Shown here: piece after piece, positions 16,358 through 37,602 of the stretch
How positions within the stretch are numbered: position 1 is the stretch's first letter
Layout of the letters: each line of letters starts with the position of its first letter
Assembly: GCA_049517415.1 (NCBI GenBank)
Contig: JBEKSC010000026.1
Coordinates: 1-37,604, forward strand
Direction of reading: 5' to 3'
Source: Candidatus Bathyarchaeia archaeon
Lineage (GTDB): Archaea; Thermoproteota; Bathyarchaeia; 40CM-2-53-6
DNA: 37,604 nucleotides
Notes under the pieces: model-generated
Database searches by the model: none
Told to the model about the DNA's origin: nothing
What the model saw: the letters and a program-made list of their open reading frames with translations, nothing else
Translations under genes and position numbers: made by a program

Positions 16358-17322
16358 TAGGCCAAGAGCTCCTTCTCCGCCTTCCGTATTGCAGCTTCGC
16401 TGTTGAGTTTCGGAGTCCAACCCAGCCTTCGCAATTTTCCTATGGAGAGATGCATTTGTTTGACGTCCCCTAACCATCCCCTCCCGCCGTCGACACCCCC
16501 CGTAAAATTCATCTTTACTCCATGCAGGCCCATTTGTTCGGCGACGATTTCGGCAATGTGTTTGACGGTGATTTGGTCCGCCGAACTTACGTTGTATACG
16601 TCGACACGTAGTTCAGAGGATAAGAAACGATCTTTAATGAAGCTGGCCGCGCCGAGGAGATCTTCGACATGGATGTAGGATTTTTTCTGGGTTCCGTCGC
16701 CTAGGATCTCTAGTGCGCTGGCATCTGCCTTCAGTTTCCTTAAGAAATCCACTACGACTCCGTGCGTCGCTCGTGATCCTACGCAGTTGCCAAAGCGTAA
16801 GATTAGGGCGCGCATCCCGTGCGTATATGCGTAAGAGCTGATGAGAGCCTCACAGCCTAGCTTGGTGGCACCGTAAGTAGAGATGGGTAAGAGTGGCCCG
16901 TAATCTTCAGGCGTGGGTAATTTAGACGCCTCGCCGTACACCGTGGAGGTGGATGCAAAAACGATATGTTTTGCGGTCTTGCTCTTGCGCAACGCTTCGA
17001 GTAACATGAAGGTTGCGAAGAGGTTCTCTTGGAAGTGCAAGGCTGGGTTGGTTTCGCCGACATTTACCTCAGGATTGGCGGCAAAATGATAAACCAGACT
17101 CACTCCATCCAGAACGTCATTCCATCCGCTAAATTTCTTCAGGTCTGCCTCGACAAATTTGAAGCCAGGTTTGGCGGACGAACTACGTAGGTTATCCAAA
17201 CTACCGCTACTGAGGTTGTCGATTACGACAACGTCGTCGCCCTCTGCCATCAAAGCTTCGACGAAATGACTCCCAATGAACCCAGCCCCACCAGTTACAA
17301 GAACATTCATCGAGCTACCCAT
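16357..17322 (-). CDS. NAD-dependent nucleotide-sugar epimerase/dehydratase (UDP-glucose 4-epimerase-like)
   Basis: VTGGAGFIGSH, HFAANP, STSTVYG, YGATK (YxxxK), LGDGTQ. Start placed at ATG 17322 after GGAGG. Confidence 0.92.
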   Translation of the reverse strand: MGSSMNVLVTGGAGFIGSHFVEALMAEGDDVVVIDNLSSGSLDNLRSSSAKPGFKFVEADLKKFSGWNDVLDGVSLVYHFAANPEVNVGETNPALHFQENLFATFMLLEALRKSKTAKHIVFASTSTVYGEASKLPTPEDYGPLLPISTYGATKLGCEALISSYAYTHGMRALILRFGNCVGSRATHGVVVDFLRKLKADASALEILGDGTQKKSYIHVEDLLGAASFIKDRFLSSELRVDVYNVSSADQITVKHIAEIVAEQMGLHGVKMNFTGGVDGGRGWLGDVKQMHLSIGKLRRLGWTPKLNSEAAIRKAEKELLA

Positions 17323-17410
17323 ACCCTCCGTTCTGCTAATTATCTCGCCAGTGGGATTTAATCGATAAAGGTAGAAGGCAGGCCTAATCACCATTGTGGC
17401 TTGAGGATTA

Positions 17411-18157
17411 ATGCCTGCCAGAACGCGAGAAGGACTGGTTTCAGTGGTCCTTTCAACTTACAACGAGCGCGAAAATGTATCTAAGCTTGTCCCAATCATC
17501 GAAAGCATTTTGAAGAGCAGTAAGATTCGGGGCGAGATAGTAGTAGTAGACGACAACTCGCCTGATGGTACTTCTGACCTGGTGAGGAAGCTAGGCAGGA
17601 AATATGGGAACGTTCGATTACTCTGGCGTCCTAGAAAGATGGGACCCGGCTCCGCCCATGCTGACGGTTACAGATTCGCCAAGGGCGACATCATCGTAGG
17701 TATGGATACTGACTTTTCTCACAGCCCGTACGACATCCCTCGTTTCGTCGCAAAAATCAATGAGGGGTATGACTTAGTCGTCGGCTCACGCTACATCAAG
17801 GGAGGTCAATATGAAGTGAAATCATTCCAAACCTTGGAAAAGAGTATTGCAAGTAGGCTGGGGAACATCCTCATAGTCTTGCTTTCACATGTGCCGGTAC
17901 ACGACTTCACGACAGCCTTGCGTGCCATTCGACGGGAAGCAGTCTGGGGAGTTGAAACGAAGTCGAAGGGGAATTCGTTTTTCATGGAGTTCATCGTTAA
18001 GGCGTACTGGAAAGGGTATAGGACAACTGAGGTTCCAATCGTATTCAGGGATAGGGTGATCGGGAAGTCAAAGTTGAAATTGGGCAGTCAATCGTTCAAG
18101 ATGCTCGCGGACCTTGTGAGGCTGAGTTCGCAAGCTAACGCTTCGTCAATGGTTTAA
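17411..18157 (+). CDS. Polyprenol/dolichol-phosphate mannosyltransferase (DPM1-like GT2)
   Basis: TYNEREN, VVDDNSPDGT, MDTDFSH, GSRYIKGG, EVPIVFRDR, GKSKL. Confidence 0.9.
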   Translation: MPARTREGLVSVVLSTYNERENVSKLVPIIESILKSSKIRGEIVVVDDNSPDGTSDLVRKLGRKYGNVRLLWRPRKMGPGSAHADGYRFAKGDIIVGMDTDFSHSPYDIPRFVAKINEGYDLVVGSRYIKGGQYEVKSFQTLEKSIASRLGNILIVLLSHVPVHDFTTALRAIRREAVWGVETKSKGNSFFMEFIVKAYWKGYRTTEVPIVFRDRVIGKSKLKLGSQSFKMLADLVRLSSQANASSMV

Positions 18158-19442
18158 GTAAGCCGGAGCTGAATCCTTCTAAGAAAAAGCCCAGCTCCCA
18201 AACAGGCTTGGCCAGAGCTGCCGCTATGCGTTTCAGCTTCTTCTGTAATTTCAGGTTAAAGCACACGAAATATGCTCCTAGGAATATGAGTTGCCGGAAA
18301 GCGGCTGACATGTTGATCAGTCCGAACGGTGTGAGTTGGTCAGTTATGTATCTTGGAAATTGGGGATGAGCACCTCCGATGAAGTAGAACAGGATTATGA
18401 ATGCGTTCAGTACATCAGCAATTCTGTAGAAGAGGAAATTGAAGTCCGGGGTTAAGATTATAACGGGAAAGAGTTGGATGAACATCTGTGGGTCGAACAG
18501 GTAGATTGCTCCGTACCAGGCGTACCAGGAGAGAAGGATTTTTTCCAGAGGTGTCTTCCTGCTGGCAATAGCCCGCATGATCAAATACGCGATTATCGTG
18601 AAACTCAGGATTTGCCCATATCTTGCGCCTGAGACTATGTCGCCAAGGCCTGCTGTAGTTATGACCCACGAGATCCAAGTGTTTTGTAACTGATGATTGG
18701 GCCCAGCGTATCCTATGAACAGCTTAATCCAGACGTTGAAATTTAGGACGGCGAAAGGTGCGTTCACCAGTGCCCACGCCGTTGCAGCAATCGCGGTGAA
18801 CCTTAATCGAGCCCTATTGTTCGGAAGCCCGGCAACCATCGCAAAGTACATTATCCCTGGGATAAACTTCGTCAGAACAGCTGCCGTTAGAGTAAGTGCG
18901 CTCGCGTCAAACCTTTTGTCGAGGTACAGCCAAATCGTCAGGCTGACAAAATAAGCCACTACAAAATCCCAGTTGTAAAACCCGTAGATGACAAAGGTAA
19001 GAGTAGTTAGCACGTACAGGTACAAGCGTTTTCGGTTCAGCCGGAGCTTCCCACACAACATGTACAGGTTGAATAATGTTCCAATCATGAAGGGGTACTG
19101 TAGAACGGATTCGGCTACGACGAACGTGTTATAATTGTCGACCACTATCGGAAAATAGGTTGATATTGCCTGACCGAGAAAAATGAGAAAACCGATGACC
19201 TGCGGGTATTCAAGCTCGTACTGCACGTATGGTATCTGGAGATTATGATGGCCCAGATACACATCTCTAATCCATAGCCAGCCCACATCACTATAGAGGC
19301 TCGGCTGCACAAAGGGCAGTTTCAAGATTGATGAGTAAAGCCATAGGGAAGTAGCCACGAGGAAGATCAGTCTGAACTCAAAGTCGCGTTGAGCGAGGTT
19401 CCAGAAGCCACGGAACCCATACCTCCACGCCGCAGATGCCAT
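18135..19442 (-). CDS. GT-C fold polytopic glycosyltransferase (GT87/DUF2029-like)
   Basis: LYSDV in the first external loop, PY...LEYP, NWD, K-x-x-P, VNAPF; about 11 TM helices. Confidence 0.78.
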   Translation of the reverse strand: MASAAWRYGFRGFWNLAQRDFEFRLIFLVATSLWLYSSILKLPFVQPSLYSDVGWLWIRDVYLGHHNLQIPYVQYELEYPQVIGFLIFLGQAISTYFPIVVDNYNTFVVAESVLQYPFMIGTLFNLYMLCGKLRLNRKRLYLYVLTTLTFVIYGFYNWDFVVAYFVSLTIWLYLDKRFDASALTLTAAVLTKFIPGIMYFAMVAGLPNNRARLRFTAIAATAWALVNAPFAVLNFNVWIKLFIGYAGPNHQLQNTWISWVITTAGLGDIVSGARYGQILSFTIIAYLIMRAIASRKTPLEKILLSWYAWYGAIYLFDPQMFIQLFPVIILTPDFNFLFYRIADVLNAFIILFYFIGGAHPQFPRYITDQLTPFGLINMSAAFRQLIFLGAYFVCFNLKLQKKLKRIAAALAKPVWELGFFLEGFSSGLLKPLTKR

Positions 19443-21356: not shown

Positions 21357-21459
21357 CACGATCTCAATCAAAAGCCTGCACTGAACCGCACGTGGAAATG
21401 TGGGACACAATTAAACAGATACTGGCCAATTGACTAAGCTGAGAAGAAGGCGCGCTTGA

Positions 21460-22695: not shown

Positions 22696-22789
22696 GCCTG
22701 AGAGAAAATCAGAGGACGTTCACAACTCTTCCCCTTGGAATGAGCTAGTGTGACTGTTTCACGCGTGCGGCGTTGCATTATGGTTGAGA

Positions 22790-23869: not shown

Positions 23870-24189
23870 CGTCCCATTCCTCACAGTTCCACTTTTCTCT
23901 GTTTGGTCCCCAATCCATTCAGCCCAGTCATAAACTCGGTCGCCTGGACCAGGGTCTAGACGGGCCAACCAAGAAAGACATCGTATAAAACATCCGTCAT
24001 AAAGTCACACACGAAACTGAAGTTCCCGGAATCACCGAAAACAGAAAGATAGAGTTGAAGTACATGCTGGTAAATCGCAGTGTGCTCCCCATAAGACTAA
24101 GCGCAAAAAGAACACTAATACGACCGAAAAGAAGAGTTATTGGTGTAAGTTGCGGTGGCTTTGAATACACCACAGCTTAGATATCCGGG

Positions 24190-27054
24190 TTGCGGATCCG
24201 CGTGCCTCACAAGAAATTGCTGATGATAGTTGCAGCCATTGGAGTTCTGATCCTTTCTGCAACTCTTCAGTTAGGCTACGTAAACGCGTCACCACCGATA
24301 GCTAAAATCATCTCCTTGAATTACCCCCACCACGTTCTATCCGCCACTGTTTTTCCTCTGACCGTTGTTGTTGATTATTCGGATAAAGTCGGAGTGGACA
24401 TCGGCATTTGGGATGCCGAGAGGGGGGTTGTCGTACAGAGCATATCGATTCCTTTGCGCGACGTAGGGCCAATGACCTTCACTTTTAATTTGACAGCCCC
24501 CAACGAAACGACCGAATGGCGCCTCCTTGCGATCACGAGAATCTGGTGGCAGAACGCATGGTACCAGGACCCGCTCGAAGGTTCAAGCTCTTTCACGGTC
24601 GACGTGTCTAATGCTGCTATCCTAACGTTAGCTTCTTCAGGTCCGTCTTCATCGATCGCTCTGGATGGCACCACATATCCCGTAAATGCTTCGGGTCCCG
24701 TTAATCTTTCGGTCACGCCAGGCGTTCACAGCCTAGCCGCGACGCATATAATCCCGGGTACAGCTGGAGAGCGCTTTGTGTTCGCAGGTTGGAGTGACGG
24801 ATTCACCTCGAATCCCCGCCTGCTCGTAATCAGCAACACCGCGAACCTAACGGCGCTATATCGCACGGAATACTACCTTTCCGTGAAATCTGAACATGGC
24901 CTAAGCGCCGGTCAAGGATGGTACCCAGCAGGTTCGAATGCGAATTTCACTGTCGTCCCAGCTTCCAGCGGCCAGAATTGGGTGGAGTTTGTGGTGGGGA
25001 CCTATAGGTTCGCAGGTTGGTCTGGTGACAGTAGTTCGAACGACGCGCTCGCATCAGTAGTCATGGACGGGCCGAAGAACGTGGAAGCGCGTTGGGTACC
25101 TTCAGAAACAGCAACAGGCTCACTGCTCATATTCAGCGCTCTCATGCTTGGTAGTTTGATTCTATTCATCAGAGCGATCCACCGCCTTCCCAGAAGGCGT
25201 ACCCCAAGAATTCCACCCCACCTTGTCCAACAGTGGAAAAAATGGGCATGGGTCGCCACAATCTTGATCCTTGTTCTGATCCAAATTCCCACCTCGCACG
25301 CCCAACTTCCAGTGCAACCGGGGAGGTCAATCGTAAGGATCGGTGACGCTTCTTGGTACTACTGGAACAATACTGCTAGCGATACTTGCATAATCTGGCT
25401 CGGCGGCGGGACAACGTATGAACAACAGATAGGTTACTATTCCTACATGATTAACCCCTTCGAGTACGAGTCTTTCGGGACAATCAAGTTCCTTCAACAC
25501 CTGACTACGTACTACTGCTTAATCGCGCTCCAGAAAGGGTCATACGAATACTATAGCCCTGAGTCAAATCGCACAATCTACCAGGAACCATACCAAATGG
25601 ATTCCAGGATCATTGGTGACGTTCATGATTGGATAAGAAAGCAAGGATATGCTCACACATTTCTTGTGGGATACTCTACGGGGGCTCAAGTTGCAGCTAT
25701 GGAAGCGGCCATACGCGCTCCCGAGGAATGGGTGAGCCCAGATGGCATTGTGCTCATTACGCCGCGACTGTCCGAACTCATATCGAAGAGCGCGCATCGA
25801 ATGCAAGCGAGCCTACTGGTTCTTTACGGTGGAAGTATAGAAACACCGGCCTATGTCAGCACGGGGTATGAATTCTTCTTGGACGCCCCGAAAGACGGCT
25901 GGCATAATTCGTCCTACCTCCACAAGAGCTTCCAAGTAATTGAAAAGATGGGCCACGAAGTATGGACGGTGTATCAGACGGGGACATACGATACACAAGC
26001 GGAGGGCATCCTAGTAAACTTCGTAAGCAACGTGAAGGCGCTCCAATTTACCGATAACGACGTAGATGCAATTGAGCACGCGGCTGAAGAAACCTCTGCG
26101 CCTATCAACTCTGGCCTTGATCTGACGTCAGCAAATGCGCCCAGCGAAGTATCCACATCTACGATAGTGAAGGTCAGAGTTTTACTCGCGTATGGTAAGT
26201 ATTCGACAGGAACGGCGCAGGTAATCGCATTCAACCTTCAGCGGGGGAATATTGAAAGTAGCCAAGAAGTCTTTCTTGTCGGAAGCGGCGATCGTGCTCT
26301 TCTCCTCGGCTTCTTGCCCCCGCCCAATTCAACTGAACTTCCACTCGCCATCATCCTGGTAACAGAGGCAGGCGGCGGTTGGAAACTGGTTTCCGGCCCT
26401 CTGCTGACGAAAACGAAGGTATTGAACACAATCACGGTCACAATCGCATCAACCGTCCCAGGCATCTCCTTCGCGTTCGACGGAAGTGAATTGAGAATTC
26501 CCGACACAGGTAGTGTCTATCTGGAGGCCAGCCAGGGATCCCACACCATCCAAGTCAAACCCATGGCTTACCTTACTTCGCAAACGAGAGTTGTCTTCAC
26601 GGGTTGGGAGGATGGGAGCACTGATGCAACACGATTGATCACCATACAGAATGTCACCAGCATACTTGCCAATTACCGGGTACAGTACTTTGTCAACGTA
26701 ACGTCGGCGTACGGGATAGCTTCAGGCTCCGGTTGGTACGACGAGAATAGTACGGTGTCCGCATCGGTCGAGCCTCCTGCAGTCAACGAATCAAAAGTGA
26801 TATTTGCACAATGGCGGTGGGATGTGGAGAGTAGCGACTCCAGAATTCTCTTGACTGCAGATTCACCGAAAACGGTACAGGCTGAGTGGGCCCCGTTTCC
26901 GAGTTACGAATGGGTGGGAACGAATATTGTCCTCTTGCTGTTTGGATCATTCCTCTTTTTGCTAACTGTTCTTTGGAACCTCAATCCGTTCCACAGAACC
27001 CGTGCCGAAGATGACCTGCAATACTTCGTGAAGCGGGGAGGTCGGTCTAAATAA
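24190..27054 (+). CDS. Large multi-anchored surface protein with a duplicated beta-sandwich module and a central alpha/beta-hydrolase domain
   Basis: 954 aa; N-terminal signal; two copies of the F-x-G-W-x-D-G...Y-Y/F-x-x-V-x-S-x-x-G-x-x-x-G-x-G-W-Y module; GYSTG nucleophile elbow (25669-25683) and GHE His; three further hydrophobic helices. Confidence 0.8.
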   Translation: MRIRVPHKKLLMIVAAIGVLILSATLQLGYVNASPPIAKIISLNYPHHVLSATVFPLTVVVDYSDKVGVDIGIWDAERGVVVQSISIPLRDVGPMTFTFNLTAPNETTEWRLLAITRIWWQNAWYQDPLEGSSSFTVDVSNAAILTLASSGPSSSIALDGTTYPVNASGPVNLSVTPGVHSLAATHIIPGTAGERFVFAGWSDGFTSNPRLLVISNTANLTALYRTEYYLSVKSEHGLSAGQGWYPAGSNANFTVVPASSGQNWVEFVVGTYRFAGWSGDSSSNDALASVVMDGPKNVEARWVPSETATGSLLIFSALMLGSLILFIRAIHRLPRRRTPRIPPHLVQQWKKWAWVATILILVLIQIPTSHAQLPVQPGRSIVRIGDASWYYWNNTASDTCIIWLGGGTTYEQQIGYYSYMINPFEYESFGTIKFLQHLTTYYCLIALQKGSYEYYSPESNRTIYQEPYQMDSRIIGDVHDWIRKQGYAHTFLVGYSTGAQVAAMEAAIRAPEEWVSPDGIVLITPRLSELISKSAHRMQASLLVLYGGSIETPAYVSTGYEFFLDAPKDGWHNSSYLHKSFQVIEKMGHEVWTVYQTGTYDTQAEGILVNFVSNVKALQFTDNDVDAIEHAAEETSAPINSGLDLTSANAPSEVSTSTIVKVRVLLAYGKYSTGTAQVIAFNLQRGNIESSQEVFLVGSGDRALLLGFLPPPNSTELPLAIILVTEAGGGWKLVSGPLLTKTKVLNTITVTIASTVPGISFAFDGSELRIPDTGSVYLEASQGSHTIQVKPMAYLTSQTRVVFTGWEDGSTDATRLITIQNVTSILANYRVQYFVNVTSAYGIASGSGWYDENSTVSASVEPPAVNESKVIFAQWRWDVESSDSRILLTADSPKTVQAEWAPFPSYEWVGTNIVLLLFGSFLFLLTVLWNLNPFHRTRAEDDLQYFVKRGGRSK

Positions 27055-27220: not shown

Positions 27221-28063
27221 TTGAAGCTGCGACGTCTGACAATATTTTTCGTCGTATACATTGTCGCGCTCAGCTTCATACCTTTAGTTCACCAGACCTT
27301 TGTTGCCCAAAGTACGTGGTTGGGGTACGGTGTTGGCGCCTATGCCTTCCAGAGCCCCAGCTACTTTGTTCTGTTCAATGACCCTTACGATGGTAGCAGC
27401 AAACCAAACATTCACGTGAACCCGTCCTTTGCTCCGAACGAACGAATCAGCCTAATCGAATTCAGCGATTGGACGAGCTATGTGGACGGATACAACCTGT
27501 TCAACGATTTCAACGCAAGCATCAGCACCACTCCCAAGACCCTGGATGTAACTTACACGGGTCATGGCTTGGTTATTCACAAATTCGTTGAGGTACCCAC
27601 GGGAGATTATGTCTCAGTTAAGATCATTGCAAACAAGGAAATCACCGCCCACATCGAAATGTGGAAGTGGGTGTTTACCTCGGTCAATGGGGTAACCGTA
27701 ACAGCCGCCCCTAAGCCTACGCTGCTCCCGATTTCTCAAGACATAAACCTCACTTTTCTCGACCAATCCTCGGGTGTGAGCGGAAGTGGCTCAGTTAAGA
27801 TGTCTCGTGTCCCGTCTCAGATTGAGGTGTGGCCTTTTGAGAACGGTTTCAATAGAGTTACTGTAGATTACATCAACAGGGAGATGGAATTTACGGTCTC
27901 AGGGTCGGCTGGAGGCAATCAGCAGCCTTTTCCAACTTGGAGTTATACTGACATCCCATACGTCTTACCCTTAGTTGCGATTGCCGCAGTATCCCTCTAC
28001 CTGCTGTTGGTTGAAAAGCATGGAAAGAAGAATAAGGCTCGTTCTCGCCGCTCTCGCAGTTAG
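27221..28063 (+). CDS. Exported beta-rich protein with C-terminal TM anchor and basic tail
   Basis: N-terminal K/R plus hydrophobic signal; N-x-S/T sequons (NAS, NLT); ends IPYVLPLVAIAAVSLYLLLV-EKHGKKNKARSRRSRS. Confidence 0.75.
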   Translation: MKLRRLTIFFVVYIVALSFIPLVHQTFVAQSTWLGYGVGAYAFQSPSYFVLFNDPYDGSSKPNIHVNPSFAPNERISLIEFSDWTSYVDGYNLFNDFNASISTTPKTLDVTYTGHGLVIHKFVEVPTGDYVSVKIIANKEITAHIEMWKWVFTSVNGVTVTAAPKPTLLPISQDINLTFLDQSSGVSGSGSVKMSRVPSQIEVWPFENGFNRVTVDYINREMEFTVSGSAGGNQQPFPTWSYTDIPYVLPLVAIAAVSLYLLLVEKHGKKNKARSRRSRS

Positions 28064-29321
28064 ATTGGCGATAGCGCCTTTCTTCATGCATGCGGGCGAC
28101 TTAGGGACAGTTTATGAATCAAGTCGAATCGTTCTCAGCGGCGGAAACGTCTACAACTACGTCTACCAACAGACTCTCCTGATGCAACATGCCTCAGGGC
28201 TGCCTGTGTTTTTCGAAGGTTACGCATACCATCCCCTACTCATCTATTTCTTTGTTCCATTCTACTGGCTTTTCACGGTTGTGGCAGGGCATTCCCTCGT
28301 TATCATTGGGGGAAGCGCTGCGAGTCTGCCCGTTTTGATTTACCCTTGGGCGCTCCTTGCTATCTTCATGCTGAAAATTCCAATCGTGATCGCTGATATC
28401 GCGGTAGTCTATGTTTTGGCTAAGTTTGATTACAAGAAGGCTGAGATCTACGCGTTCTGCCCCTATGTCATCTTCATCTCGGTGGTCTGGGGAATGTTTG
28501 ATGCCATTGTCGCAATATTTCTTCTCCTCAGTTATCTCACCTTTTCAAAGCATTCGTATTTCCTGGCGGGCCTGACATATGGCGTAAGCTTAGTGAAACT
28601 GTATACCGCCGTGCTAGCACCACTTTACGTATACCGGTTATTGGGTAGGTGGAAGGAACTCGGCGAATTTCTGTTGGGGTTTTCCCTTACGCTCCTTCCC
28701 GTAGCATACTATTTCATAATTAGCCCATCTGCGTTCTGGAATGTGGTTGTTGTCTTCCAAGGCCTACGAGTTATGGGAGGCGTCAACCTCTATAATTTCA
28801 TCTGGAACGTGCCCGATGTCAGATTTGATATTTTGCTCTCAGCCGTCGCGAGCGCGGCTACAATCATTAGTGTTGCATACGTCACTCTGAAGTATGGACG
28901 GAGGCTACCGCTACTCGAGGCAGTATTGGCGGTAATGTTGGTAAGTTTTCTTTTCGGAAAAATCATGAATGAACAATTTCTAGTCTCGATTCTTCCTTTG
29001 ATTCTATTATCCAAGAAATGCGATTATAGGTTGTGGGCTGCGCCTTTCATATTCATATTCCTGCGTTCCCCGTTTTACTATTTCGCAATCCCAATCTTAT
29101 GGGCCAGTCCATATTTCTACGACCTCTATTTTCTGGCGAACAATGTCTGGATGCAAATTCAAACCGCAGGGTACCTTATGGTACCGATCTATGCTACGGG
29201 AGTAGCTTTTTCACTCTTGATCTTATGGAATTTACTTCAGCTCTTGAGGCCTACTCGCTCATGGGGGGACATTAGCCTCTCTTGGGCTTTCTCCCGTGTC
29301 GTACGAAGCCGTCGTAAGTAG
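28020..29321 (+). CDS. GT-C fold polytopic glycosyltransferase (PIG-M/GT87-like)
   Basis: RLAIAPFFMHAGD, YAYHP, LKIPIVIAD, CPYVIFISVVWGMFD, KLY, NEQF. Start ATG 28020 overlaps the upstream gene by 44 nt. Confidence 0.8.
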   Translation: MERRIRLVLAALAVRLAIAPFFMHAGDLGTVYESSRIVLSGGNVYNYVYQQTLLMQHASGLPVFFEGYAYHPLLIYFFVPFYWLFTVVAGHSLVIIGGSAASLPVLIYPWALLAIFMLKIPIVIADIAVVYVLAKFDYKKAEIYAFCPYVIFISVVWGMFDAIVAIFLLLSYLTFSKHSYFLAGLTYGVSLVKLYTAVLAPLYVYRLLGRWKELGEFLLGFSLTLLPVAYYFIISPSAFWNVVVVFQGLRVMGGVNLYNFIWNVPDVRFDILLSAVASAATIISVAYVTLKYGRRLPLLEAVLAVMLVSFLFGKIMNEQFLVSILPLILLSKKCDYRLWAAPFIFIFLRSPFYYFAIPILWASPYFYDLYFLANNVWMQIQTAGYLMVPIYATGVAFSLLILWNLLQLLRPTRSWGDISLSWAFSRVVRSRRK

Positions 29322-29869
29322 TCAACGGAGAAGCATGAGATTGCGAAGATTAGAACCACTAATTTCGCCGCGAACACGACGTTTATCGCATACGGGTTAG
29401 CCGGCCACCAGTTGACAATAATATCAGGGTTCTGTAAGCCCTGAACCGATAATCCCGCGGACCAGAGAACGACTTGATATAGGACTTCAAAGCCGCTTAG
29501 CATTACGAAGAACCAAGAAATTACGTAAAGCGATTCGAAGAACTGGTCTCCTATGCCCAGCAGCCTCCGCTTGGATATTGGTGAGTTCAATCCGAACGCG
29601 AAGGATAGGAAGAAGAAGTATGTGAACAGCGTCATTGGTTTGAACTGGAAGAGAACCAGATTGACCTCAGCATCGACCATGTTTTCTCCGATAATGTACG
29701 GCGCGCTAAGGCTGATGGAGTAAGCCGCAAGCACACCAAGTGCCAAAATCCCGAAAATTACGGAGAGCACGTTCATGACTGGCATTGATCGGCCTTTCGT
29801 TCCATACATTGATCGTAGCTGTTCTGAACTCAGATCGCCTAGGCCGACCCTCGCCTCTCTTCGGTTCAT
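29237..29869 (-). CDS. Hypothetical 4-TM membrane protein
   Basis: 210 aa with four hydrophobic helices; conserved-looking NPD...N...FAAK loop. Confidence 0.7.
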   Translation of the reverse strand: MNRREARVGLGDLSSEQLRSMYGTKGRSMPVMNVLSVIFGILALGVLAAYSISLSAPYIIGENMVDAEVNLVLFQFKPMTLFTYFFFLSFAFGLNSPISKRRLLGIGDQFFESLYVISWFFVMLSGFEVLYQVVLWSAGLSVQGLQNPDIIVNWWPANPYAINVVFAAKLVVLIFAISCFSVDYLRRLRTTREKAQERLMSPHERVGLKS

Positions 29870-30083
29870 AGCAATACACGTGTCGCGTGTTTCTCTGGGT
29901 ACGCTTAAGTCTTTAGTCAGAATTTCGAGAGGTCAATGTTGCGGGGACGAGTATCAGAAGAATGCCTAGGAAGGACGCGCTTGAACGTGTCCATGTTCGC
30001 CAGCGAGTATGTACATCTTTCCGCGCCACAAGGGGCCTTCGACATCAGAAGCGCATCCGTGGGTTTCCTCGTAAATTCGATGT

Positions 30084-30863
30084 TCACATGAAGGCGTCAG
30101 CGCAGCTGTACTTGGGATTGAAGCAGGCTGCGAAACTCGAGTCTGTTGTCTGGGATGTGTAAGGAGAGTTGCTCATGACCGTTAACCTATTGAGATATGC
30201 GTAGTGCCATCCCAAGGAACCTTTCGCAACTCCGAAAATTATGCTGAAGGTTACACTGTTGGGAAGGAGCCAATTAGCTGCCGCATATTCTTTGGCGAAA
30301 TTGAACTCTTCGAATGTCCAAGTTCCCGATGGGGTGGACCTGAACTCGATCCTGTGATTCAGCAGGGTAAGAGTGTCACTAGACTTGTCTGAGAAGAGAA
30401 TGCTAATCGTGTGAACTCCGTCATTGACTTCAACGACAAGCGTTACTCCGGTTCTGTTGAAAGGATCATCGTCACAATGACAAGGCTCCTTCATAAACCA
30501 CAAACCAACGGTCGAAGTGAAAAGCGCGGATAAACGGCCACCGTCTAACGTCTGAGTAAGGCTCTCGTATACTCCTCCAGGCGCCTCGCCGCTTTGGAAG
30601 ACTCCTAATGCAACTGCGTCTCTCCCATCGGCTACGGTTTCGTTCAAGGTCACCCGATCGAATGAGCCTTTAACGGACTCGCGATCCCAAACCATCAACT
30701 GAGGGCCCGTAGAGGTATTGGCCCACAGTTTGAAATTTGGGTCAAGTATCGGGGGCAGGCCGGAATAGCTACCTTGCAGATTCGCAAAAGCAAGTGCGCC
30801 GACCAGTATGAGTAAACTTACAGAAGCTGTTGCGAAGTATTTTCGAACCTGGCGGGCCTTCAA
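30084..30863 (-). CDS. Exported, N-terminally anchored beta-sandwich (CBM/jelly-roll-like) protein
   Basis: From TTG 30863 (TTGA overlap with the upstream stop): MKARQVRKYF plus a hydrophobic helix, then DPNFKLW...GTWTFEEFNF...YLNRLTV; sequons NTS, NET, NRT. Confidence 0.7.
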   Translation of the reverse strand: MKARQVRKYFATASVSLLILVGALAFANLQGSYSGLPPILDPNFKLWANTSTGPQLMVWDRESVKGSFDRVTLNETVADGRDAVALGVFQSGEAPGGVYESLTQTLDGGRLSALFTSTVGLWFMKEPCHCDDDPFNRTGVTLVVEVNDGVHTISILFSDKSSDTLTLLNHRIEFRSTPSGTWTFEEFNFAKEYAAANWLLPNSVTFSIIFGVAKGSLGWHYAYLNRLTVMSNSPYTSQTTDSSFAACFNPKYSCADAFM

Positions 30864-32113
30864 GTTGAACGCCTTCTGTTGTGGGAGTAGTCGGTTGAAT
30901 TGTACCACAATACTAGGGAGACTAGCATGAGTGGGATCCAGTAGATTACGTAGCTGGTTAGCGCGCGATATGAAAACCACAGAATTATGCCTGGCAGTAT
31001 CCACACAACGTATCTTAGCTGGCTAAAGTAGACGTAGTAATTGGTGACGAGTACGACCAGCACACCAATAGCCAGTAGAGTGTAGAATGTTCTTCCTACG
31101 TTGATTAATCCCACTTGCGAAAGTACCGCTGGCCCTTGACTTAGTATAACTAGGTTTGAGGTGATTGGCGTAACGATGTTCCGAAGCCAACCGAGGGGGT
31201 CACTGAATGCGAATGGCAAATTCACAAGAAAGAAGAGGCCCAACGCTGGTCCAACGAACTTTGCGATTCTCACTAGCTTGTCGCGGGTTTCTCTTGTGTG
31301 TTGGGTTCGAACTAGATAGATGATGATGAACGGAGCCAGGAGCCAGGGGGGCTGTTTTATCGCACATGCAATACCGTAGAGGACGCCTGATAATGCAGGT
31401 TTCTTGTCTATTGTGAATGCCACTAGGACTAGGGGAAGAACCCAGAGCATGTCCGTTACGCTTGAGGCAGTGTAGTTGATCATTAAGTCTGAGCCTGCGT
31501 AGAGGGGTAGAATCAGCATTGGCCTGAGATTTTCGGGGCATTTGATGTATAGGACGGCTATGATGCCTAACTCGAACATCACGAGAACCCATCTCATGTC
31601 TTTCAAGCCCATTAAGACAAATGGAACAAAGATGAGAAAGTGAAGGGAGGGATATTGGAACGTGGCTAGGTAACTTCCCGTGCTCAATGGGGTAAGGTCG
31701 GAGGGCTGAACGGCGAACATGGATAGGGCAGGCGTTAAGTCTTGAGTGTACGGGTTGAGGCCCTTGGTCACTAGGATGGCCGCGTACTGGCTGAACGCTA
31801 ACACATCGGTTCTATAAGACGCCTTGTACGCAATTTCCGCGACTACGTAAACACTGGTAATCGTTGCCAGTACGAGCGGCAGGAGGGAGAAGTCTTTGAG
31901 CTTGAAGACGGTTGCATCCGGCATTAGAGACAGTGCGATGACGAAGAGCGAGATGGCGTAGATGAGCAAAGTTGCAACGGCAACTTCTGGGTGAATATCA
32001 GCCCTTCCGCGATTCCAATCTTGAAATCCCTCGTAGAGAGAGAATTGCCCAACGAAGAGAAATGAAAGCCTTAGAATGAACGACTCGTACTTAACGCGAT
32101 TGAAATGGCTCAC
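30860..32113 (-). CDS. GT-C fold polytopic glycosyltransferase (GT87-like)
   Basis: RTD...YAA...GLNPY, FQYP, TD, ACAIKQPPW, VNLPF; about 11-12 TM helices. Confidence 0.75.
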   Translation of the reverse strand: MSHFNRVKYESFILRLSFLFVGQFSLYEGFQDWNRGRADIHPEVAVATLLIYAISLFVIALSLMPDATVFKLKDFSLLPLVLATITSVYVVAEIAYKASYRTDVLAFSQYAAILVTKGLNPYTQDLTPALSMFAVQPSDLTPLSTGSYLATFQYPSLHFLIFVPFVLMGLKDMRWVLVMFELGIIAVLYIKCPENLRPMLILPLYAGSDLMINYTASSVTDMLWVLPLVLVAFTIDKKPALSGVLYGIACAIKQPPWLLAPFIIIYLVRTQHTRETRDKLVRIAKFVGPALGLFFLVNLPFAFSDPLGWLRNIVTPITSNLVILSQGPAVLSQVGLINVGRTFYTLLAIGVLVVLVTNYYVYFSQLRYVVWILPGIILWFSYRALTSYVIYWIPLMLVSLVLWYNSTDYSHNRRRST

Positions 32114-32128
32114 CTTTCGATTGCATCC

Positions 32129-32848
32129 TCACTTCCGATTTCTCCTCGAAACGCTACGAGCCTGGCGAGCTTGCTTAATCCGCCGATGAATCAATTCGAG
32201 GAGTGGAAAGTTCATTATGATTATGGTTGCGACGACGATGCCTAGCCAAGTAATTACGACTGAGCTTTCAGTGCGTCCTGGGTGAAGGAAGGGCTGCGGG
32301 GACATCACCCGTCGTACTTGCTGCGTGACCGAATTGCCAACAATGATGTCTTGCCAGATTGTCCCGCCGGTCGCTGGACTTGTTATTTGGAAGGTGGTGG
32401 TTCCATTTCCTCCACCCATTAGCCACACGTAAACCTGCGGGAGAGACGCGTCAACGTTTAGAACGAGGTCGGCGTAGACCTCTGTGTAGTGAAAATCATT
32501 CAGGCCCTTGAAGAATTCTAATAAGTCCCCGTGCCGGAGCACTATCCGTCCATAAACTTGGTCAGGCCATGTAAGCTTCCTGCCCGTTTGCAGAACATCG
32601 TCAAAATCCTGACCCGTTGTCCATCCACTCCCTAGGACGCTGCTAATTCCGAGGCCGTTCGAGTTAGTGCCGTTCAGGTCATCGAACAGAATGCGGCCCC
32701 AGTCGGATGTTGACTGGATAATGACTTTAACCGGCTCCTCGTGCCAATCCGGACCGACTTCAGCGGCCGCGAAGAAATAGGAAGTGGCCAAGGCTGAGGT
32801 TGTTATGGCTAACAGGAGTAACAGGCTCAGGGTTTTCCGGCTTGACAT
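32129..32848 (-). CDS. Exported protein with C-terminal TM anchor and basic tail
   Basis: Signal MSSRKTLSLLLLLAITTSALA; two NGT sequons; ends VVITWLGIVVATIIIMNFPLLELI-HRRIKQARQARSVSRRNRK. Confidence 0.75.
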   Translation of the reverse strand: MSSRKTLSLLLLLAITTSALATSYFFAAAEVGPDWHEEPVKVIIQSTSDWGRILFDDLNGTNSNGLGISSVLGSGWTTGQDFDDVLQTGRKLTWPDQVYGRIVLRHGDLLEFFKGLNDFHYTEVYADLVLNVDASLPQVYVWLMGGGNGTTTFQITSPATGGTIWQDIIVGNSVTQQVRRVMSPQPFLHPGRTESSVVITWLGIVVATIIIMNFPLLELIHRRIKQARQARSVSRRNRK

Positions 32849-32850
32849 AG

Positions 32851-33984
32851 TTACTTGGCCAACTTGCGAGTTCTAATCTTTTTCGGCACACTTTTCTTAC
32901 GTTTTCTGGGGGCCCGGCGGGGGCGCGTTAACCTGTTTTCAATTTCAATTATCAAGAATAGGTAGGCTACGATCCAGAATAGGAAAAGTACTTCGCCAAC
33001 CGTATTGTGGAAGGCGTCAAGTTGCTGGCCGCTAGTGGCATAGGCATAGCCGTAGTAGGCGATTGAGAAGACCCTGACCACATTCAGAAGCACCGTAACC
33101 AAGACGCCCACCGCTGCGTAAATTATCTTTCGGATTCTGGGCGCCTGCAATTTTGCCGCAATCACGACCATAACCACAGAGTAGATCAGGATGCTCTGTA
33201 CGCCAACGCTCGGCCAATAGACAACCAAGCTGTAGTAACCGTGGAGACCGACTATCGTCAGATGATTCGTGAACCCATAGATCGGAAGCCCGAAAACCAT
33301 AGCGAGGAGGGCGACGCCCGCAACTATGAAGTTCGCCCAAAACTGCAAGGGGCCAATGGAGCCATAGGGTAGGAAAGCATCAAGGAGATAGAAGAACAAC
33401 ATCCCCAGGCCGAACAAGAGTGGCGTGACGATTCGTCGAATGGCACTTGCGGTGAAGAGGATTATGGACAATACTGCGATATAGATCGTGTCAGCGATGA
33501 AGTCTGTTGCCATCAAGAAGCTATTGCTGTAGTCGCCCGACGCTCCGAGCACTCGTCCTATGGCATAGATGAAATTCGTAAGTCCACCCTGAAGAATCAA
33601 GCCAAAGTCGATATGGCCTTGGTTTAATCCAAGTGCCAGCGCGTCCACGGCTCCTGGGGAGTATCCTGCCTGACTTACCCCCACTTCGACAAAGTAGAAC
33701 ACGCCAATTACGACTATTATGACGGCTTCGAGCTTTCGCCTCATGGTCCACTGTATCTTGCCTTTCTTGAAATCTAGAAGATCTAGCCCTAGGAAGAAGA
33801 GGATAATGAAGAGCCCGCCTCTACCGAGTTGGCCGAACCCCGCCCAGCTCAACTCGAATGTTTGCGGTGCAACGATGAAGAGAAATACGATCGGCGTTGC
33901 AGCAAGGATGAGCAGCACATCTCGACCGCTGACAGACCGCAGAATATTCACTAGGCGACTTAGCGGCCTCACCCTAACTGGCAT
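32851..33984 (-). CDS. Archaeosortase/exosortase-family transpeptidase, Ser-nucleophile (thaumarchaeosortase-like) type
   Basis: Polytopic protein; VYWPSVGVQS (Ser259 at the Cys position), LNVVRV (Arg304), AFHN (His326); two genes from a PEF-CTERM protein. Confidence 0.85.
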   Translation of the reverse strand: MPVRVRPLSRLVNILRSVSGRDVLLILAATPIVFLFIVAPQTFELSWAGFGQLGRGGLFIILFFLGLDLLDFKKGKIQWTMRRKLEAVIIVVIGVFYFVEVGVSQAGYSPGAVDALALGLNQGHIDFGLILQGGLTNFIYAIGRVLGASGDYSNSFLMATDFIADTIYIAVLSIILFTASAIRRIVTPLLFGLGMLFFYLLDAFLPYGSIGPLQFWANFIVAGVALLAMVFGLPIYGFTNHLTIVGLHGYYSLVVYWPSVGVQSILIYSVVMVVIAAKLQAPRIRKIIYAAVGVLVTVLLNVVRVFSIAYYGYAYATSGQQLDAFHNTVGEVLFLFWIVAYLFLIIEIENRLTRPRRAPRKRKKSVPKKIRTRKLAK

Positions 33985-33994
33985 TCGCGGCTAC

Positions 33995-34744
33995 CTAGAA
34001 AACGCGGTCCTTTGGAAATACCTCTATTCCCGTTGAACCAATTTGATATGGGCGAAGCTGCGAATCGTGGCTTATGCCGCGCATCTTTTCGACCTGTAAC
34101 CCGCGGATTACGTTTCCTTCGTGCACCATTGTGTGAAGTAGGACGACGCCTTGCGAGAGGTACTCTTCGATTTGAAATCGGCGGGCGAGCATAGAGGTTC
34201 GGAGTTCGGTAGTTACGATGCATGAGCATCCAGTGGATTCCAGTGCGTCGAAGAAGAGCAACAGTGCACGCCTCCGCTTCGCTTCCTCCGGATAGCGAAG
34301 CATAAGCGACGTAATAGGGTCAACGATGATCCTCTGTGTGCCTTCCTCCGCGGCCACCCGCCTTATCGTTCGAACCAATGACCCGAGCGTCAGTTCGGGG
34401 AGAGTTAGGCCTACCGGGTTCTCCGGCTCTATGGGCGGCTGGATCATTCTGTGCCCTGGCCGTTTCAGTTGTGTCGCGTCGATGAACGTAAGCTTACCTG
34501 CGTTCTCCAGGGAATCCAAGTCCCACCCGAAGGAAGAGAGGTTAACTTTGATGCGTTCGGGTTTCTCATCAAGAGCTACGTATAGGCCCGGCTCATCCGC
34601 CCTCGCTCCACCAACGAGGAATTGTATGGCGAAGGTCGTCTTTCCAGAGCCCGGGCTTCCGACTACGAGTATCGTTCTGGCCTTTGGAAGGCCCCCGTTG
34701 AGAACTTCATCAAGCCCCTTGATGCCTGTTGCAACTCTATCCAA
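33995..34744 (-). CDS. Single-domain KaiC/RAD55-family ATPase
   Basis: TGIKGLD, Walker A GSPGSGKT, Walker B IIVD, TTE, EYLSQGVV, VEKMRG. Confidence 0.92.
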   Translation of the reverse strand: MDRVATGIKGLDEVLNGGLPKARTILVVGSPGSGKTTFAIQFLVGGARADEPGLYVALDEKPERIKVNLSSFGWDLDSLENAGKLTFIDATQLKRPGHRMIQPPIEPENPVGLTLPELTLGSLVRTIRRVAAEEGTQRIIVDPITSLMLRYPEEAKRRRALLLFFDALESTGCSCIVTTELRTSMLARRFQIEEYLSQGVVLLHTMVHEGNVIRGLQVEKMRGISHDSQLRPYQIGSTGIEVFPKDRVF

Positions 34745-34887
34745 TTCCCTTACACCACGCGCCGCTTTGCAACGTTATCTTGGCCCATATTATTTAGTTG
34801 CTGATGACCCGGAAATCTAGGCTACTAGACCGCTCGAAAACGGATTCGGTTAATGTGACATAGACTCTCGTCTTACGGATTTTGAAT

Positions 34888-34907
34888 AGAAAAAGAGGGG
34901 AAGGGAG
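34888..34907 (-). terminator. Pyrimidine tract, probable terminator of the PEF-CTERM gene
   Basis: The + strand AGAAAAAGAGGGGAAGGGAG gives a C/T tract ending in oligo-T on -, ~20 nt after the stop at 34927. Confidence 0.55.
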
Positions 34908-34926
34908 TTTCTACGCGCGCAGGCGC

Positions 34927-37602
34927 CTAGCGGCGTCTGCGTCGTAGTATGTATAGTGAAGCTGCAAGCGCTGAAAATGCTACTACTCCGATTGCGCTGA
35001 ATTCGGGGACTGGAATGTTGCTCTGTTGCAGGTACACGTTCTGGCCTACTCCGAATTGGCCTGGTGAGACCACTACGGAGAAGGTTTGAGCCGTGACACC
35101 TGGACCTGCTATGGTGAACTTGTACGTGCCGGGTGGCAGGTACGCTTCGTAGATGCCGTCGAAGGTGTAGAAGTTAAACGACGCACCACTTGCGCCCACT
35201 ACGCTAACGGTGTACCAGCTTACTGGCCGGAACTCGTTAGCCCACGTGAACGCTAGAGCGTTGCCTGATACGAGGCCGTTCAAGTCGACTTCGAAGATTG
35301 CGCTGGCCTCACCGCTTAGGTGAGCGTTGCTGATTTGCCAAACACCTTGTTGTGAGTATGGGCCTAAGTGGTTCATGGACAACGTATGTCCTACGAACGT
35401 AGAGCTTTCGGCCCCGTCTTCTGTGTATCCCGCACCAAACGAATTCTTCGCTGTGGTTCCTGGGATGATGTGGAAGGATTCTCCCATCAGTAGCCCTTGA
35501 ACCGGCGGGTAGTAGTTGGTCACTGGGAAGGTGCTTGTGTTGTTGCCGTACCAGTTTACGAAGTCTACTTCAGCAGTCCATCCGCCCGTGTAGTCAGGCG
35601 CTCCGAGGATGCCTGAGTTAGCGTATGGGTACTGAGCGTAGGCTCCTGGATAGCAGTCGAGTTCAAAGTCGCATCCAGGCGTGAATACCGGGTCGCCATA
35701 GTATGGGCCGTTGATGTGATTTCCTCCTGGCGGCTGCTGTGGCAGTCCAGCCATAAGGACGTGGAGCAGTGTTGTGTTTGATGGCACGTAATTGTAGGCA
35801 TATGTGCCTGACGACGGTACCTGTATGCCACCTTGGTATGATGCGAATGGATATAGCGCGTTCGGAATGTAGTCTACCTGTCCTACAGTGTTCGTGACGA
35901 AGAATGGACTTGAAAAGGCGTCTGGTGTGAGTTGTCCGTTCGCGGCTATGGCTGTGTGTGCCGGCACCGTACAGATTGTTGAACATGTGGAGTTGGTTAC
36001 GTACACGCCTTCAGAGGACATCCAATCGGCGACCAGGTTACCCGAGTCGTCGAATAGGCGTACTCTTGCAGACATGTTGTTCAGCGTACCCGTTATGATG
36101 CTCTCCTTCTTGAAGAGCACATCGAGCGTTACGTTGACACCGATCAACAGGTTGACCCGCATGTCAGCGACTTGCCCGTTCATGGCGTACGCTGTGAAGT
36201 CTTGGTCCTGTATGTATCCGTACGTGTAGGCTCTGAGGTTGTATTGGCCTTCTTTGAAGTGGCGTGGCAGCTCTGTTGTCCACATGCTGCCCGTCAACAG
36301 CTTGGTAGCCGTTAGGAATTGCCACCATTGCCCGGTGTATCCACCTACGTAGCCGAACCTTCCGGATTGGCCGAAGAACGCATCGTGAGCAGCGGATGTT
36401 GCTCCGCTAAGCCCGCCGAGGACGTTTCGTCCACCACCGTCCATTTCGGCGCAGGTGGAGTTGTCGGGGACACCGTTTCCTTGGAATGGGCATGGGATTT
36501 CGTTAGTAGCGTATCCTCCCTGGTAGAGTCCGCTCAAACCGGCCTCTATAGAGAGAGGAGGTGCATAGCTGTTGGCACTTGGTTCGTCGCCGTAGAAGTC
36601 CGCGAGTTTACCAGCTGTGCCGTTAACTACCGGGTACCATCCGAGATCGATCTCAGATCCGGCGCATACGGCCGCTGGAACTGGTCCTCCAGCTTGTGAT
36701 CCTTGCAAGACGTGGCCATAGCCTCCTGCATCTTGGCATCCACCCCAAACCCACGGTCGGGCGACACTTGGCCGTTCCCAGTCGATGCTGGATACGGTCA
36801 CGTTGAAGCCTGGCCCTCGGAATAGGTGGTCGCTGATGCTGGTTGGGTTGCCGCTTAATGTCACTGATACCTGCTCCTCCGGACTTTGTGGGACGTATCC
36901 CTCAACTGAAATGTTGGGGGTGTAGGTTCCTGACGGAATACCGTAGTTCTCTCCGCCCCACGTGTCGTTGAAGCCAAAGTATTGGATTGTTGCCTTTCCA
37001 CTGGCTAGTGAATCAGCATTGCCGTGTGCCCTGTTGAGTTGGTTCGAGTCGTGTGGGCATGATAAGCCAGGAGCACCCGTTTCTCCTGAGCCGATATACT
37101 GGACGTTGGTGTAGATGCTCGTGTAAGTGCCGAAGGTTGTGTCTGAAGCGAATGCACTGCCATCACCTTGCCATCCGTCGTAGTTGCACTGGTAGTACAG
37201 GTCGTTGTAGCCTAGGTTGGTTACGTTGTAGGCGTAAACGTTGCCGTCGCCACCTACTAAGCTACCCCAAACTAAGCCTGCGCCCGTTGTGATTGGACCG
37301 GTCTGAATTGTGTTGTCTGTGTTGTGGAAGTAGAGGGTCTTGTTGACCCAGCTTGATAAGCGTAGGTCAAGAGGCAACGTCACATCTCCAGCCCACTCAT
37401 TCGGCGTTATGTCAAAGTAGTACTCTTGGAAGGTAGAACCATCCAAGGCTGTTTGAACATAACGGAAGACCCATGCACGCACATAGTATCTTCCCGGGGT
37501 TAGGCCGTTGATCCAAGTCGCATAGACCTGCGGTACTTCACCGCTGAGGTCAGTTGGAGCACCGTACTCACCCTTAAGCCCGAACTCGTAAGCGAACGGA
37601 GT
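34927..37602 (-). CDS. Large PEF-CTERM cell-surface glycoprotein (S-layer/adhesin-like); 5' end lies outside the window
   Basis: The frame stays open to the window edge (TPFAYEFGLKGEYGAP...GRYYVRAW precedes the tracked ORF), giving at least 891 aa. C-terminus IPVPEF-SAIGVVAFSALAASLYIL-RRRRR is a tripartite sorting signal. Many N-x-S/T sequons; repeated G-x-Y-x-h-x-h carboxypeptidase-regulatory-like strands. Confidence 0.88.
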   Translation of the reverse strand, partial: TPFAYEFGLKGEYGAPTDLSGEVPQVYATWINGLTPGRYYVRAWVFRYVQTALDGSTFQEYYFDITPNEWAGDVTLPLDLRLSSWVNKTLYFHNTDNTIQTGPITTGAGLVWGSLVGGDGNVYAYNVTNLGYNDLYYQCNYDGWQGDGSAFASDTTFGTYTSIYTNVQYIGSGETGAPGLSCPHDSNQLNRAHGNADSLASGKATIQYFGFNDTWGGENYGIPSGTYTPNISVEGYVPQSPEEQVSVTLSGNPTSISDHLFRGPGFNVTVSSIDWERPSVARPWVWGGCQDAGGYGHVLQGSQAGGPVPAAVCAGSEIDLGWYPVVNGTAGKLADFYGDEPSANSYAPPLSIEAGLSGLYQGGYATNEIPCPFQGNGVPDNSTCAEMDGGGRNVLGGLSGATSAAHDAFFGQSGRFGYVGGYTGQWWQFLTATKLLTGSMWTTELPRHFKEGQYNLRAYTYGYIQDQDFTAYAMNGQVADMRVNLLIGVNVTLDVLFKKESIITGTLNNMSARVRLFDDSGNLVADWMSSEGVYVTNSTCSTICTVPAHTAIAANGQLTPDAFSSPFFVTNTVGQVDYIPNALYPFASYQGGIQVPSSGTYAYNYVPSNTTLLHVLMAGLPQQPPGGNHINGPYYGDPVFTPGCDFELDCYPGAYAQYPYANSGILGAPDYTGGWTAEVDFVNWYGNNTSTFPVTNYYPPVQGLLMGESFHIIPGTTAKNSFGAGYTEDGAESSTFVGHTLSMNHLGPYSQQGVWQISNAHLSGEASAIFEVDLNGLVSGNALAFTWANEFRPVSWYTVSVVGASGASFNFYTFDGIYEAYLPPGTYKFTIAGPGVTAQTFSVVVSPGQFGVGQNVYLQQSNIPVPEFSAIGVVAFSALAASLYILRRRRR

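Follow-up and report, generated by a model that had tools for sequence, protein, structure and literature searches.

Does an archaeosortase depend on the GT-C glycosyltransferases that are encoded next to it? This question is raised by a locus of Candidatus Bathyarchaeia archaeon (assembly GCA_049517415.1) on contig JBEKSC010000026.1, which was analyzed as one whole contig (37,604 nucleotides, nt; referred to as the window in the following). A first-pass annotation had described the genes at 27221..37602 as a candidate surface-anchoring system, in which GT-C enzymes might build a glycolipid comparable to the glycosylphosphatidylinositol (GPI) anchor and the archaeosortase might transfer PEF-CTERM proteins onto it. 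The linkage between the two kinds of genes proved to be conserved, and sortases together with their presumed substrates also occur without the GT-C genes. Our tentative interpretation is a surface-glycoprotein biogenesis island of three separable modules, in which the GT-C module serves the same surface and is not required for sorting.

Linkage between the archaeosortase and the GT-C module

All nine open reading frames (ORFs) of the locus lie at the positions and on the strands given by the first-pass annotation. On the minus strand, a gene for a large PEF-tailed surface protein (34927..37602) is followed by genes for a soluble KaiC-like ATPase (33995..34744), a thaumarchaeosortase-like archaeosortase (32851..33984), an exported protein of 239 amino acids (aa) with N- and C-terminal membrane helices (32129..32848), a 417-aa GT-C glycosyltransferase (30860..32113), an exported, membrane-tethered partner of this enzyme (the "jelly-roll" gene, 30084..30863), and a small protein with three to four transmembrane (TM) helices (29237..29869). 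On the plus strand, another exported protein with N- and C-terminal membrane helices (27221..28063) travels with a second GT-C enzyme (28020..29321). The spacings from the KaiC to the jelly-roll gene, 10, 2, 15, and -4 nt, match these coordinates, provided that the latter starts at the TTG at 30863. The gene order is not random, since the same arrangement recurs in relatives.

The synteny of sortase and GT-C was examined in those 47 genomes in which a long sortase had been located and the GT-C had been searched for genome-wide. In genomes with two long sortases the linked copy was counted, and G026 and G037, which had no whole-genome GT-C search, were left out (here and below, f denotes families, g genera, G genomes, L loci, and C contigs used in the comparisons). 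A close GT-C was present in 39 of the 47 genomes and located within 5 kb of the sortase in 32 of these 39. The linkage is therefore kept in most related genomes that hold both genes. Its frequency depends on the group: the distance was at most 5 kb in 19/19 genomes of g1, 7/7 of g109, 2/2 of f9, and 4/5 of f10, and in 0/6 of f2, where the two genes of G290, for example, are 423 kb apart on one contig. In four lineages the linkage has withstood rearrangement, and the sortase is found at one end of the module or the other.

Families f5, f7, and f8 possess the sortase in seven of nine genomes and a close GT-C in none of the nine (two weak matches in f7), while our tail profile detects PEF tails in 11 of 12. 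Likewise, a search for a close GT-C in five thaumarchaeosortase genomes found none, and no GT-C or KaiC neighbors were seen at any of 12 thaumarchaeosortase loci. Sorting thus does not need the GT-C module. Because PEF tails track the sortase and not the GT-C, the module is best described as an optional partner. An obligatory pathway leading from the GT-C enzymes to the sortase is contradicted by these lineages and by the missing linkage in f2.

The opposite case is offered by g2, a genus without the sortase, in which a GT-C/partner fusion is present in 17 of 22 genomes. Both these fusions and the small TM proteins of g2 fall outside the island clades in a FastTree tree and are out-paralogs. 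We therefore rejected the argument that g2 proves the same GT-C to work without a sortase; island-type copies were seen only in sortase lineages.

The archaeosortase and its likely PEF-tailed substrates

Sequence families were scored with Pfam (PF) and NCBIfam/TIGRFAM models, each against its own cut-off. The window's sortase exceeds the cut-offs of TIGR04178 (47.4 bits; cut-off 23) and PF09721 (26.0 bits; cut-off 25.7), placing it in the exosortase/archaeosortase superfamily. The nearest family is the thaumarchaeosortases (TIGR04297), with 128.7 bits against a cut-off of 250 and hence below the family threshold. Ser259 occupies the catalytic column, so the earlier call of a Ser-archaeosortase holds. 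Among 34 relatives, this column contains Ser 22 times, Cys 12 times, and nothing else, and Asn301, Arg304, and His326 are invariant in all 34. A PDB sequence search with the sortase gave no match. Eight of the nine fetched loci with the sortase are labelled Bathyarchaeia or Bathyarchaeota. L033, labelled as a Methylomirabilota bacterium, carries this archaeal island and groups inside the archaeal sortases; it is probably a mis-binned contig.

A Ser at the catalytic site is not new, because all 12 true thaumarchaeosortases that we fetched have it; the description of this family reportedly names the Ser as well. In this family a single copy is kept in each of 28 genomes. Nor does Ser mark a sortase coupled to GT-C enzymes, since Cys forms are GT-C-linked in f9 and f10 and Ser forms are unlinked at the 12 thaumarchaeosortase loci. 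In a quick tree, the window's sortase falls in a clade separate from the thaumarchaeosortases. One unresolved fork gives rise to this clade, to another clade of Ser sortases from the genus, to the thaumarchaeosortases, and to the Cys sortases of the order.

The source genome encodes a second archaeosortase of 177 aa (L155:3419-3952; G000 C8), which is nearest to heimdallarchaeosortase/ArtH, below the cut-offs. It is encoded next to a PEF protein of 157 aa, a KaiC fusion anchored in the membrane, and a protein paralogous to the giant PEF protein; such a short sortase is present in most genomes of the genus. Its presence makes the pairing of enzyme and tail ambiguous.

The likely sortase substrate in the window (34927..37602) is represented by its C-terminal 891 aa only. 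Its 5' end is lost at the contig end, and about 580 aa are missing relative to a 1473-aa ortholog in L031, to which it is 75.7% identical over residues 582-1456; several paralogs exist in the genome. The protein contains 12 N-glycosylation sequons and ends in a VPEF-TM-RRRRR tail. As a PEF-CTERM substrate it is thus recognizable by its tail, which stays below the threshold of the corresponding model, TIGR03024 (17.2 bits; cut-off 23), in a protein that is incomplete. A scan of the genome for a PE(F/Y/L) motif followed by a hydrophobic stretch returned 23 ORFs, of which 17 were retained as plausible; one of these 17 tails passes TIGR03024 and none passes TIGR04296. The profile built from them finds 20 places in the source genome, matched by construction. 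With some 17 to 20 tails in the genome, we dismissed the idea that the sortase is dedicated to the neighboring PEF protein. The two exported proteins (32129..32848 and 27221..28063) were also discarded as sortase substrates, since neither has a sorting motif. In f2 (L107:6614-7483, L109, L112), the GT-C module is headed by a PEF-tailed Omp28/thioredoxin-like protein instead of the exported protein of 239 aa.

Within the order, the tail profile matches 73 of 105 genomes: 73 of the 79 outside g2, g3, and g154, and none of the 26 inside these genera. The sortase signature follows the same pattern, with 1/26 genomes of g2, g3, and g154 compared to 20/22 in g1 and 9/10 in g109. This joint absence, probably one loss event, ties the PEF tails to the sortases.

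The predicted GT-C enzymes and possible acceptors

A Pfam search gave no match for any of the window's three GT-C proteins. For the 417-aa enzyme, GT87 is matched by 18 of 23 family members. Its structure was predicted with a pLDDT (predicted local distance difference test) of 81 when folded with an alignment and 44 from the single sequence, and the model was compared to 48,161 chains. The best match was GPI mannosyltransferase I (9wno_A; Z 22.9, root mean square deviation 3.6 A over 311 residues), followed by ALG3 (Z 20.1), ALG6 (18.9), PimE (17.5), and PIG-U (17.4), and all 17 rows with Z >= 9.9 are GT-C-fold chains. Foldseek again placed GPI mannosyltransferase I first, at an E value of 0.017, and returned nothing at E <= 0.001. 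Asp103, located after the first core helix in the first external loop, is invariant (33/33); an acidic residue in this loop is essential in GT-C enzymes (PMC6801728). The predicted fold therefore identifies a GT87/PIG-M/ALG3-like protein. It does not single out GPI synthesis, because the scores of ALG3, ALG6, and PimE are almost as good.

For the other two proteins, the assignment to GT-C comes from their relatives. The second enzyme (433 aa from a conserved ATG) had no family match in seven of seven close members, and three of four distant relatives match PIG-U, GT87, or PIG-M, making it PIG-U/GT87/PIG-M-like by transitive homology. The Asp of its loop is conserved without exception (120/120). 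The third enzyme (435 aa; 18135..19442, minus strand) is GT87-like, as 4 of its 14 relatives match this family. When the profiles of the three GT-C families were compared, similarity was weak, and further profile comparisons linked no exported protein to another or to the PF10131 GT-C; PDB sequence searches with the second GT-C and the exported proteins found no match. Co-folding of sortase, GT-C, and small TM protein scored 0.00 and was counted neither for nor against coupling.

A Dol-P-sugar synthase and a third GT-C had been noted about 10 kb away. A polyprenol-phosphate sugar synthase of family GT2 (17411..18157, plus strand; PF00535, E 9e-30, below the NCBIfam cut-offs) likely synthesizes the donor. 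It is accompanied by a nucleoside diphosphate (NDP)-sugar epimerase/dehydratase (16357..17394, minus strand), assigned by family models, and by a second GT2 enzyme of the polyprenol-phosphate sugar synthase type (15626..16477, minus strand), assigned by family models and co-occurrence in island loci. The third GT-C is present in 15 of 32 island loci, often together with the GT2 and epimerase genes, and this recurrence makes them members of the island. Across the same 32 loci, the second GT-C is found in 20 and an unrelated PF10131 GT-C in six, never both, and neither in the remaining six. Near other sortases of the class, 6 of 21 scanned membrane proteins match GT-C-type families (PMT_2, Alg6/8, GT87, and DUF2079, the last of which we take to be a GT-C family) and six match GT2. 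Glycosyltransferases of many kinds thus recur beside sortases of this class.

The acceptor of the sorted proteins was addressed by searching for lipid genes. In Haloferax, ArtA depends on PssA and PssD, with archaetidylethanolamine proposed as the nucleophile (PMC7157517, PMC9263693). In the source genome, rated 100% complete, neither PssD nor a separate PssA was found. Two of the order's 105 genomes and none of five thaumarchaeosortase genomes gave a PssD match, while the same search was positive in 7 of 14 controls. The single CDP-alcohol transferase of the source genome most closely resembles archaetidylinositol phosphate synthase (164.9 bits; cut-off 180), and most genomes of the order also have one such transferase (of any type). 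An inositol-phosphate synthase is present as well, so that inositol lipid synthesis is encoded, with the head-group transferase slightly below its cut-off. With the PssD route missing and the only head-group transferase of the inositol type, the acceptor cannot be the one of Haloferax; this favors an inositol lipid, a glycolipid, or plain cleavage.

Integrating these results, we tentatively prefer the three-module island. The sortase would cut the PEF-TM-basic tail of about 17-20 surface proteins, a substrate link that co-occurrence shows and a cleavage assumed by analogy to ArtA. The cut proteins would probably be passed to a lipid other than archaetidylethanolamine that is supplied by housekeeping genes. 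GT2 enzymes would load sugars onto polyprenol phosphate, and the three GT-C enzymes, together with their exported and small membrane partners, would add sugars outside the membrane to a lipid-linked glycan, similar to ALG3 and ALG6. This glycan may end on sequon-rich surface proteins, probably through AglB, and the soluble KaiC and a membrane-anchored KaiC partner might regulate the envelope output. The GT-C module most likely extends surface glycans and is not a required builder of the anchor. The glycan-elongating GT-C enzymes among the fold neighbors, the presence of AglB in the source genome, and the 12 sequons of the substrate fit this interpretation. The exchange of the second GT-C for the PF10131 type and the unrelated GT-C and GT2 genes that flank other sortases are what variable glycans would lead one to expect.

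Several points weigh against it. The island clades of GT-C and small TM proteins were seen only in lineages with sortase and PEF tails, which is compatible with a one-way dependence of the module on the sortase, and the lineage losses are few independent events. The top fold match of the modeled 417-aa enzyme is a GPI mannosyltransferase, the acceptor assigned to the GT-C enzymes is putative, and AglB is encoded on another contig than the island. Moreover, the second short sortase could process some of the PEF tails.

It is rather doubtful that the module instead makes a free glycolipid or lipoglycan (resembling phosphatidylinositol mannosides or lipomannan and built on an archaeal lipid of the inositol or glycosyl type) without any contact to the sorted proteins, with the adjacency to the sortase reflecting a clustering of envelope genes. 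The similarity to GT87 and PimE, the inositol-type head-group synthesis, the unlinked genes of f2, and the paralogous GT-C/partner fusion in 17 of 22 genomes of the sortase-less genus are all consistent with such a product. However, sortase and GT-C lie in one apparent operon with overlapping genes or spacings of 2-15 nt, and the linkage has persisted through rearrangements in four lineages that place the sortase at one end or the other.

A GPI-like pathway, in which the GT-C enzymes glycosylate an archaetidylinositol-based glycolipid and the sortase transfers PEF proteins onto it, appears unlikely to us. It draws on the linkage in 32 of 39 genomes, the confinement of the island clade to sortase lineages, the fold, for which GPI mannosyltransferase I is the top match and PIG-U likewise scores high, and the combination of absent PssD, an archaetidylinositol-type transferase, and inositol-phosphate synthase. 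But the sortase occurs without the GT-C in f5, f7, f8, and the thaumarchaeosortase genomes, which also lack PssD, and such lineages would use a bare or differently decorated lipid. The genome further contains no match to PF01650, and thus no PIG-K-type (C13) transamidase, and none to the ethanolamine-phosphate transferase models PF01663 or PF00884 (the PigN model itself was not searched); its one PIG-L-family gene lies on another contig in an unrelated context. The near-equal scores of ALG3, ALG6, and PimE and the failure of Ser or Cys to track linkage do not help either. Of the initial GPI-like proposal, the linkage, the GT-C fold, and the membership of the donor genes in the island are supported, and the missing Haloferax acceptor is compatible with a glycolipid acceptor; an obligatory route from the GT-C enzymes to the sortase is not supported. 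The alternative offered at the time, C-terminal processing beside glycan extension, fits better. We likewise give a low chance to the more specific idea that thaumarchaeosortase-clade enzymes attach PEF proteins to an archaetidylinositol glycolipid whose variable glycan is built by PIG-M/PIG-U-like GT-C enzymes, an archaeal GPI analogue with an archaeosortase replacing PIG-K.

Finally, it is improbable that the sortase only cuts and releases proteins, or that its Ser form is slow or inactive and the PEF proteins keep their membrane tail, perhaps with processing left to the short second sortase. In its favor, Cys173 is critical in ArtA (PMC9263693), the ethanolamine lipid route is missing, and the second sortase lies beside a PEF protein on contig C8; against it, the site is restricted to Ser or Cys with invariant Arg and His, and the thaumarchaeosortases have Ser in 12 of 12 cases and are kept as one copy in 28 of 28 genomes. 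This possibility concerns the sortase alone and is compatible with either view of the glycan.

Partner proteins, flanking genes, and relation to known systems

The island consists of known kinds of parts and four unnamed families. The jelly-roll gene, possibly carbohydrate-binding, follows the GT-C in relatives and is fused to a paralogous GT-C in g2 (E 1e-13), which identifies its product as a partner of the GT-C. Longer fusions of this partner were not found by a dedicated search, despite their existence in g2. The 239-aa exported protein belongs to no known family and has no atlas match. The small TM protein represents an unnamed archaeal family: none of 58 relatives has an NCBIfam name, the atlas clusters are hypothetical proteins of Bathyarchaeota, and the copies from the island group in a clade of their own. 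We considered a role as a GtrA-like flippase, which no family match supports. In g2, a paralog of this protein heads a run of genes (L100:9801-15369) resembling archaeal lipid synthesis genes: a DUF2070 gene and putative reductase-like, geranylgeranylglyceryl phosphate synthase-like, and glycerol-1-phosphate dehydrogenase-like genes.

The KaiC-like ATPase had been named correctly (PF06745, E 7e-59) and has an intact Walker A motif. In relatives, its gene travels with a membrane-anchored KaiC fusion composed of an exported domain, a helix, and a cytoplasmic KaiC, as seen at L048:706-3009, L052:10562-12439, and L031:2201-4393. The two proteins are a candidate receptor-transducer pair. They are encoded beside the sortase without the GT-C module in f5, f6, and f7, and beside the module without the sortase in f2.

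Upstream of the second GT-C, a 954-aa multi-domain membrane or surface protein with InlB-B-repeat-like domains (24190..27054, plus strand) recurs in the island. Genes for a flavin adenine dinucleotide (FAD) oxidase, a LarA-family racemase, and an Ldh_2 dehydrogenase (19743-23968) split the island; this trio looks inserted, because in L031 the third GT-C directly follows the 954-aa gene. About 176 bases of the gap before the small TM gene (29870-30083) are absent from L031. At the other end of the window, the first ORF (1-1139) merges a piece of a pyrimidine-nucleoside phosphorylase, GlnD-like ACT domains, and an archaeal C-terminus, and the GC content is 64-71% in the first 600 bases compared to about 48% thereafter; this is probably a chimeric contig end.

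Among described systems, thaumarchaeosortase (TIGR04297) with PEFG-CTERM (TIGR04296) is similar, sharing the best family match, the catalytic Ser, the conserved Arg and His, a PE(F) tail, and the lack of PssD (5/5). In contrast, the island sortase reaches 128.7 of the 250 bits and forms a separate clade, the island tails miss the PEFG model, and the 12 thaumarchaeosortase loci lack the GT-C and KaiC neighbors. The ArtA/PGF-CTERM/PssA/PssD system of Haloferax volcanii (PMC9263693, PMC7157517) has the enzyme superfamily and the tripartite signal logic in common, whereas the island has Ser for Cys, His at the third site, and a PEF motif, and the genome neither PssD nor a separate PssA. Similarities to the eukaryotic GPI pathway (PIG-M, PIG-U, PIG-K) comprise the GT-C fold, a C-terminal hydrophobic signal, and an available inositol lipid, but the sortase is unrelated to PIG-K, neither an ethanolamine-phosphate transferase nor a linked PIG-L was found in the genome, and the module is dispensable for sorting. 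With the GT87 enzyme PimE and the elongases ALG3 and ALG6, the island shares the fold, the loop Asp, and GT2 donor genes, at an identity of 11-14%, and it adds partners of no known family.

Sortase-associated glycosyltransferases are also known from bacteria, where the XrtG system is of the GT2 type, and Haft 2012 reportedly linked sortases to glycosylation genes. The XrtP-associated glycosyltransferase (NCBIfam NF053846) resembles the island in that an exosortase-family gene is kept beside glycosyltransferases. It is GT2-type and bacterial, whereas the island has three GT-C enzymes, a KaiC pair, and many dispersed substrates. A literature search returned no account of this gene arrangement, of sortase systems in Bathyarchaeia, or of any archaeosortase with a glycolipid as acceptor; Haft 2012 and the 2017 survey of archaeal KaiC proteins could cover part of it. 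We therefore regard the island as a real, conserved variant of a known theme that is apparently undescribed.

An inositol glycolipid anchor, if indeed built by the GT-C enzymes, would represent a functioning archaeal counterpart to GPI anchoring; the eukaryotic parts of the latter have been argued to be Asgard-derived (PMC12872458). The only archaeosortase anchor that has been worked out needs PssA and PssD. Since sortases and substrates are retained in the absence of PssD in the order and in the tested thaumarchaeosortase genomes, there must be a second anchoring chemistry or none at all. This missing route is the most useful result of our analysis, for it allows one to ask directly which anchor chemistry this sortase clade uses, and the island points to candidate genes for making the surface glycans of a group that is abundant and uncultured.

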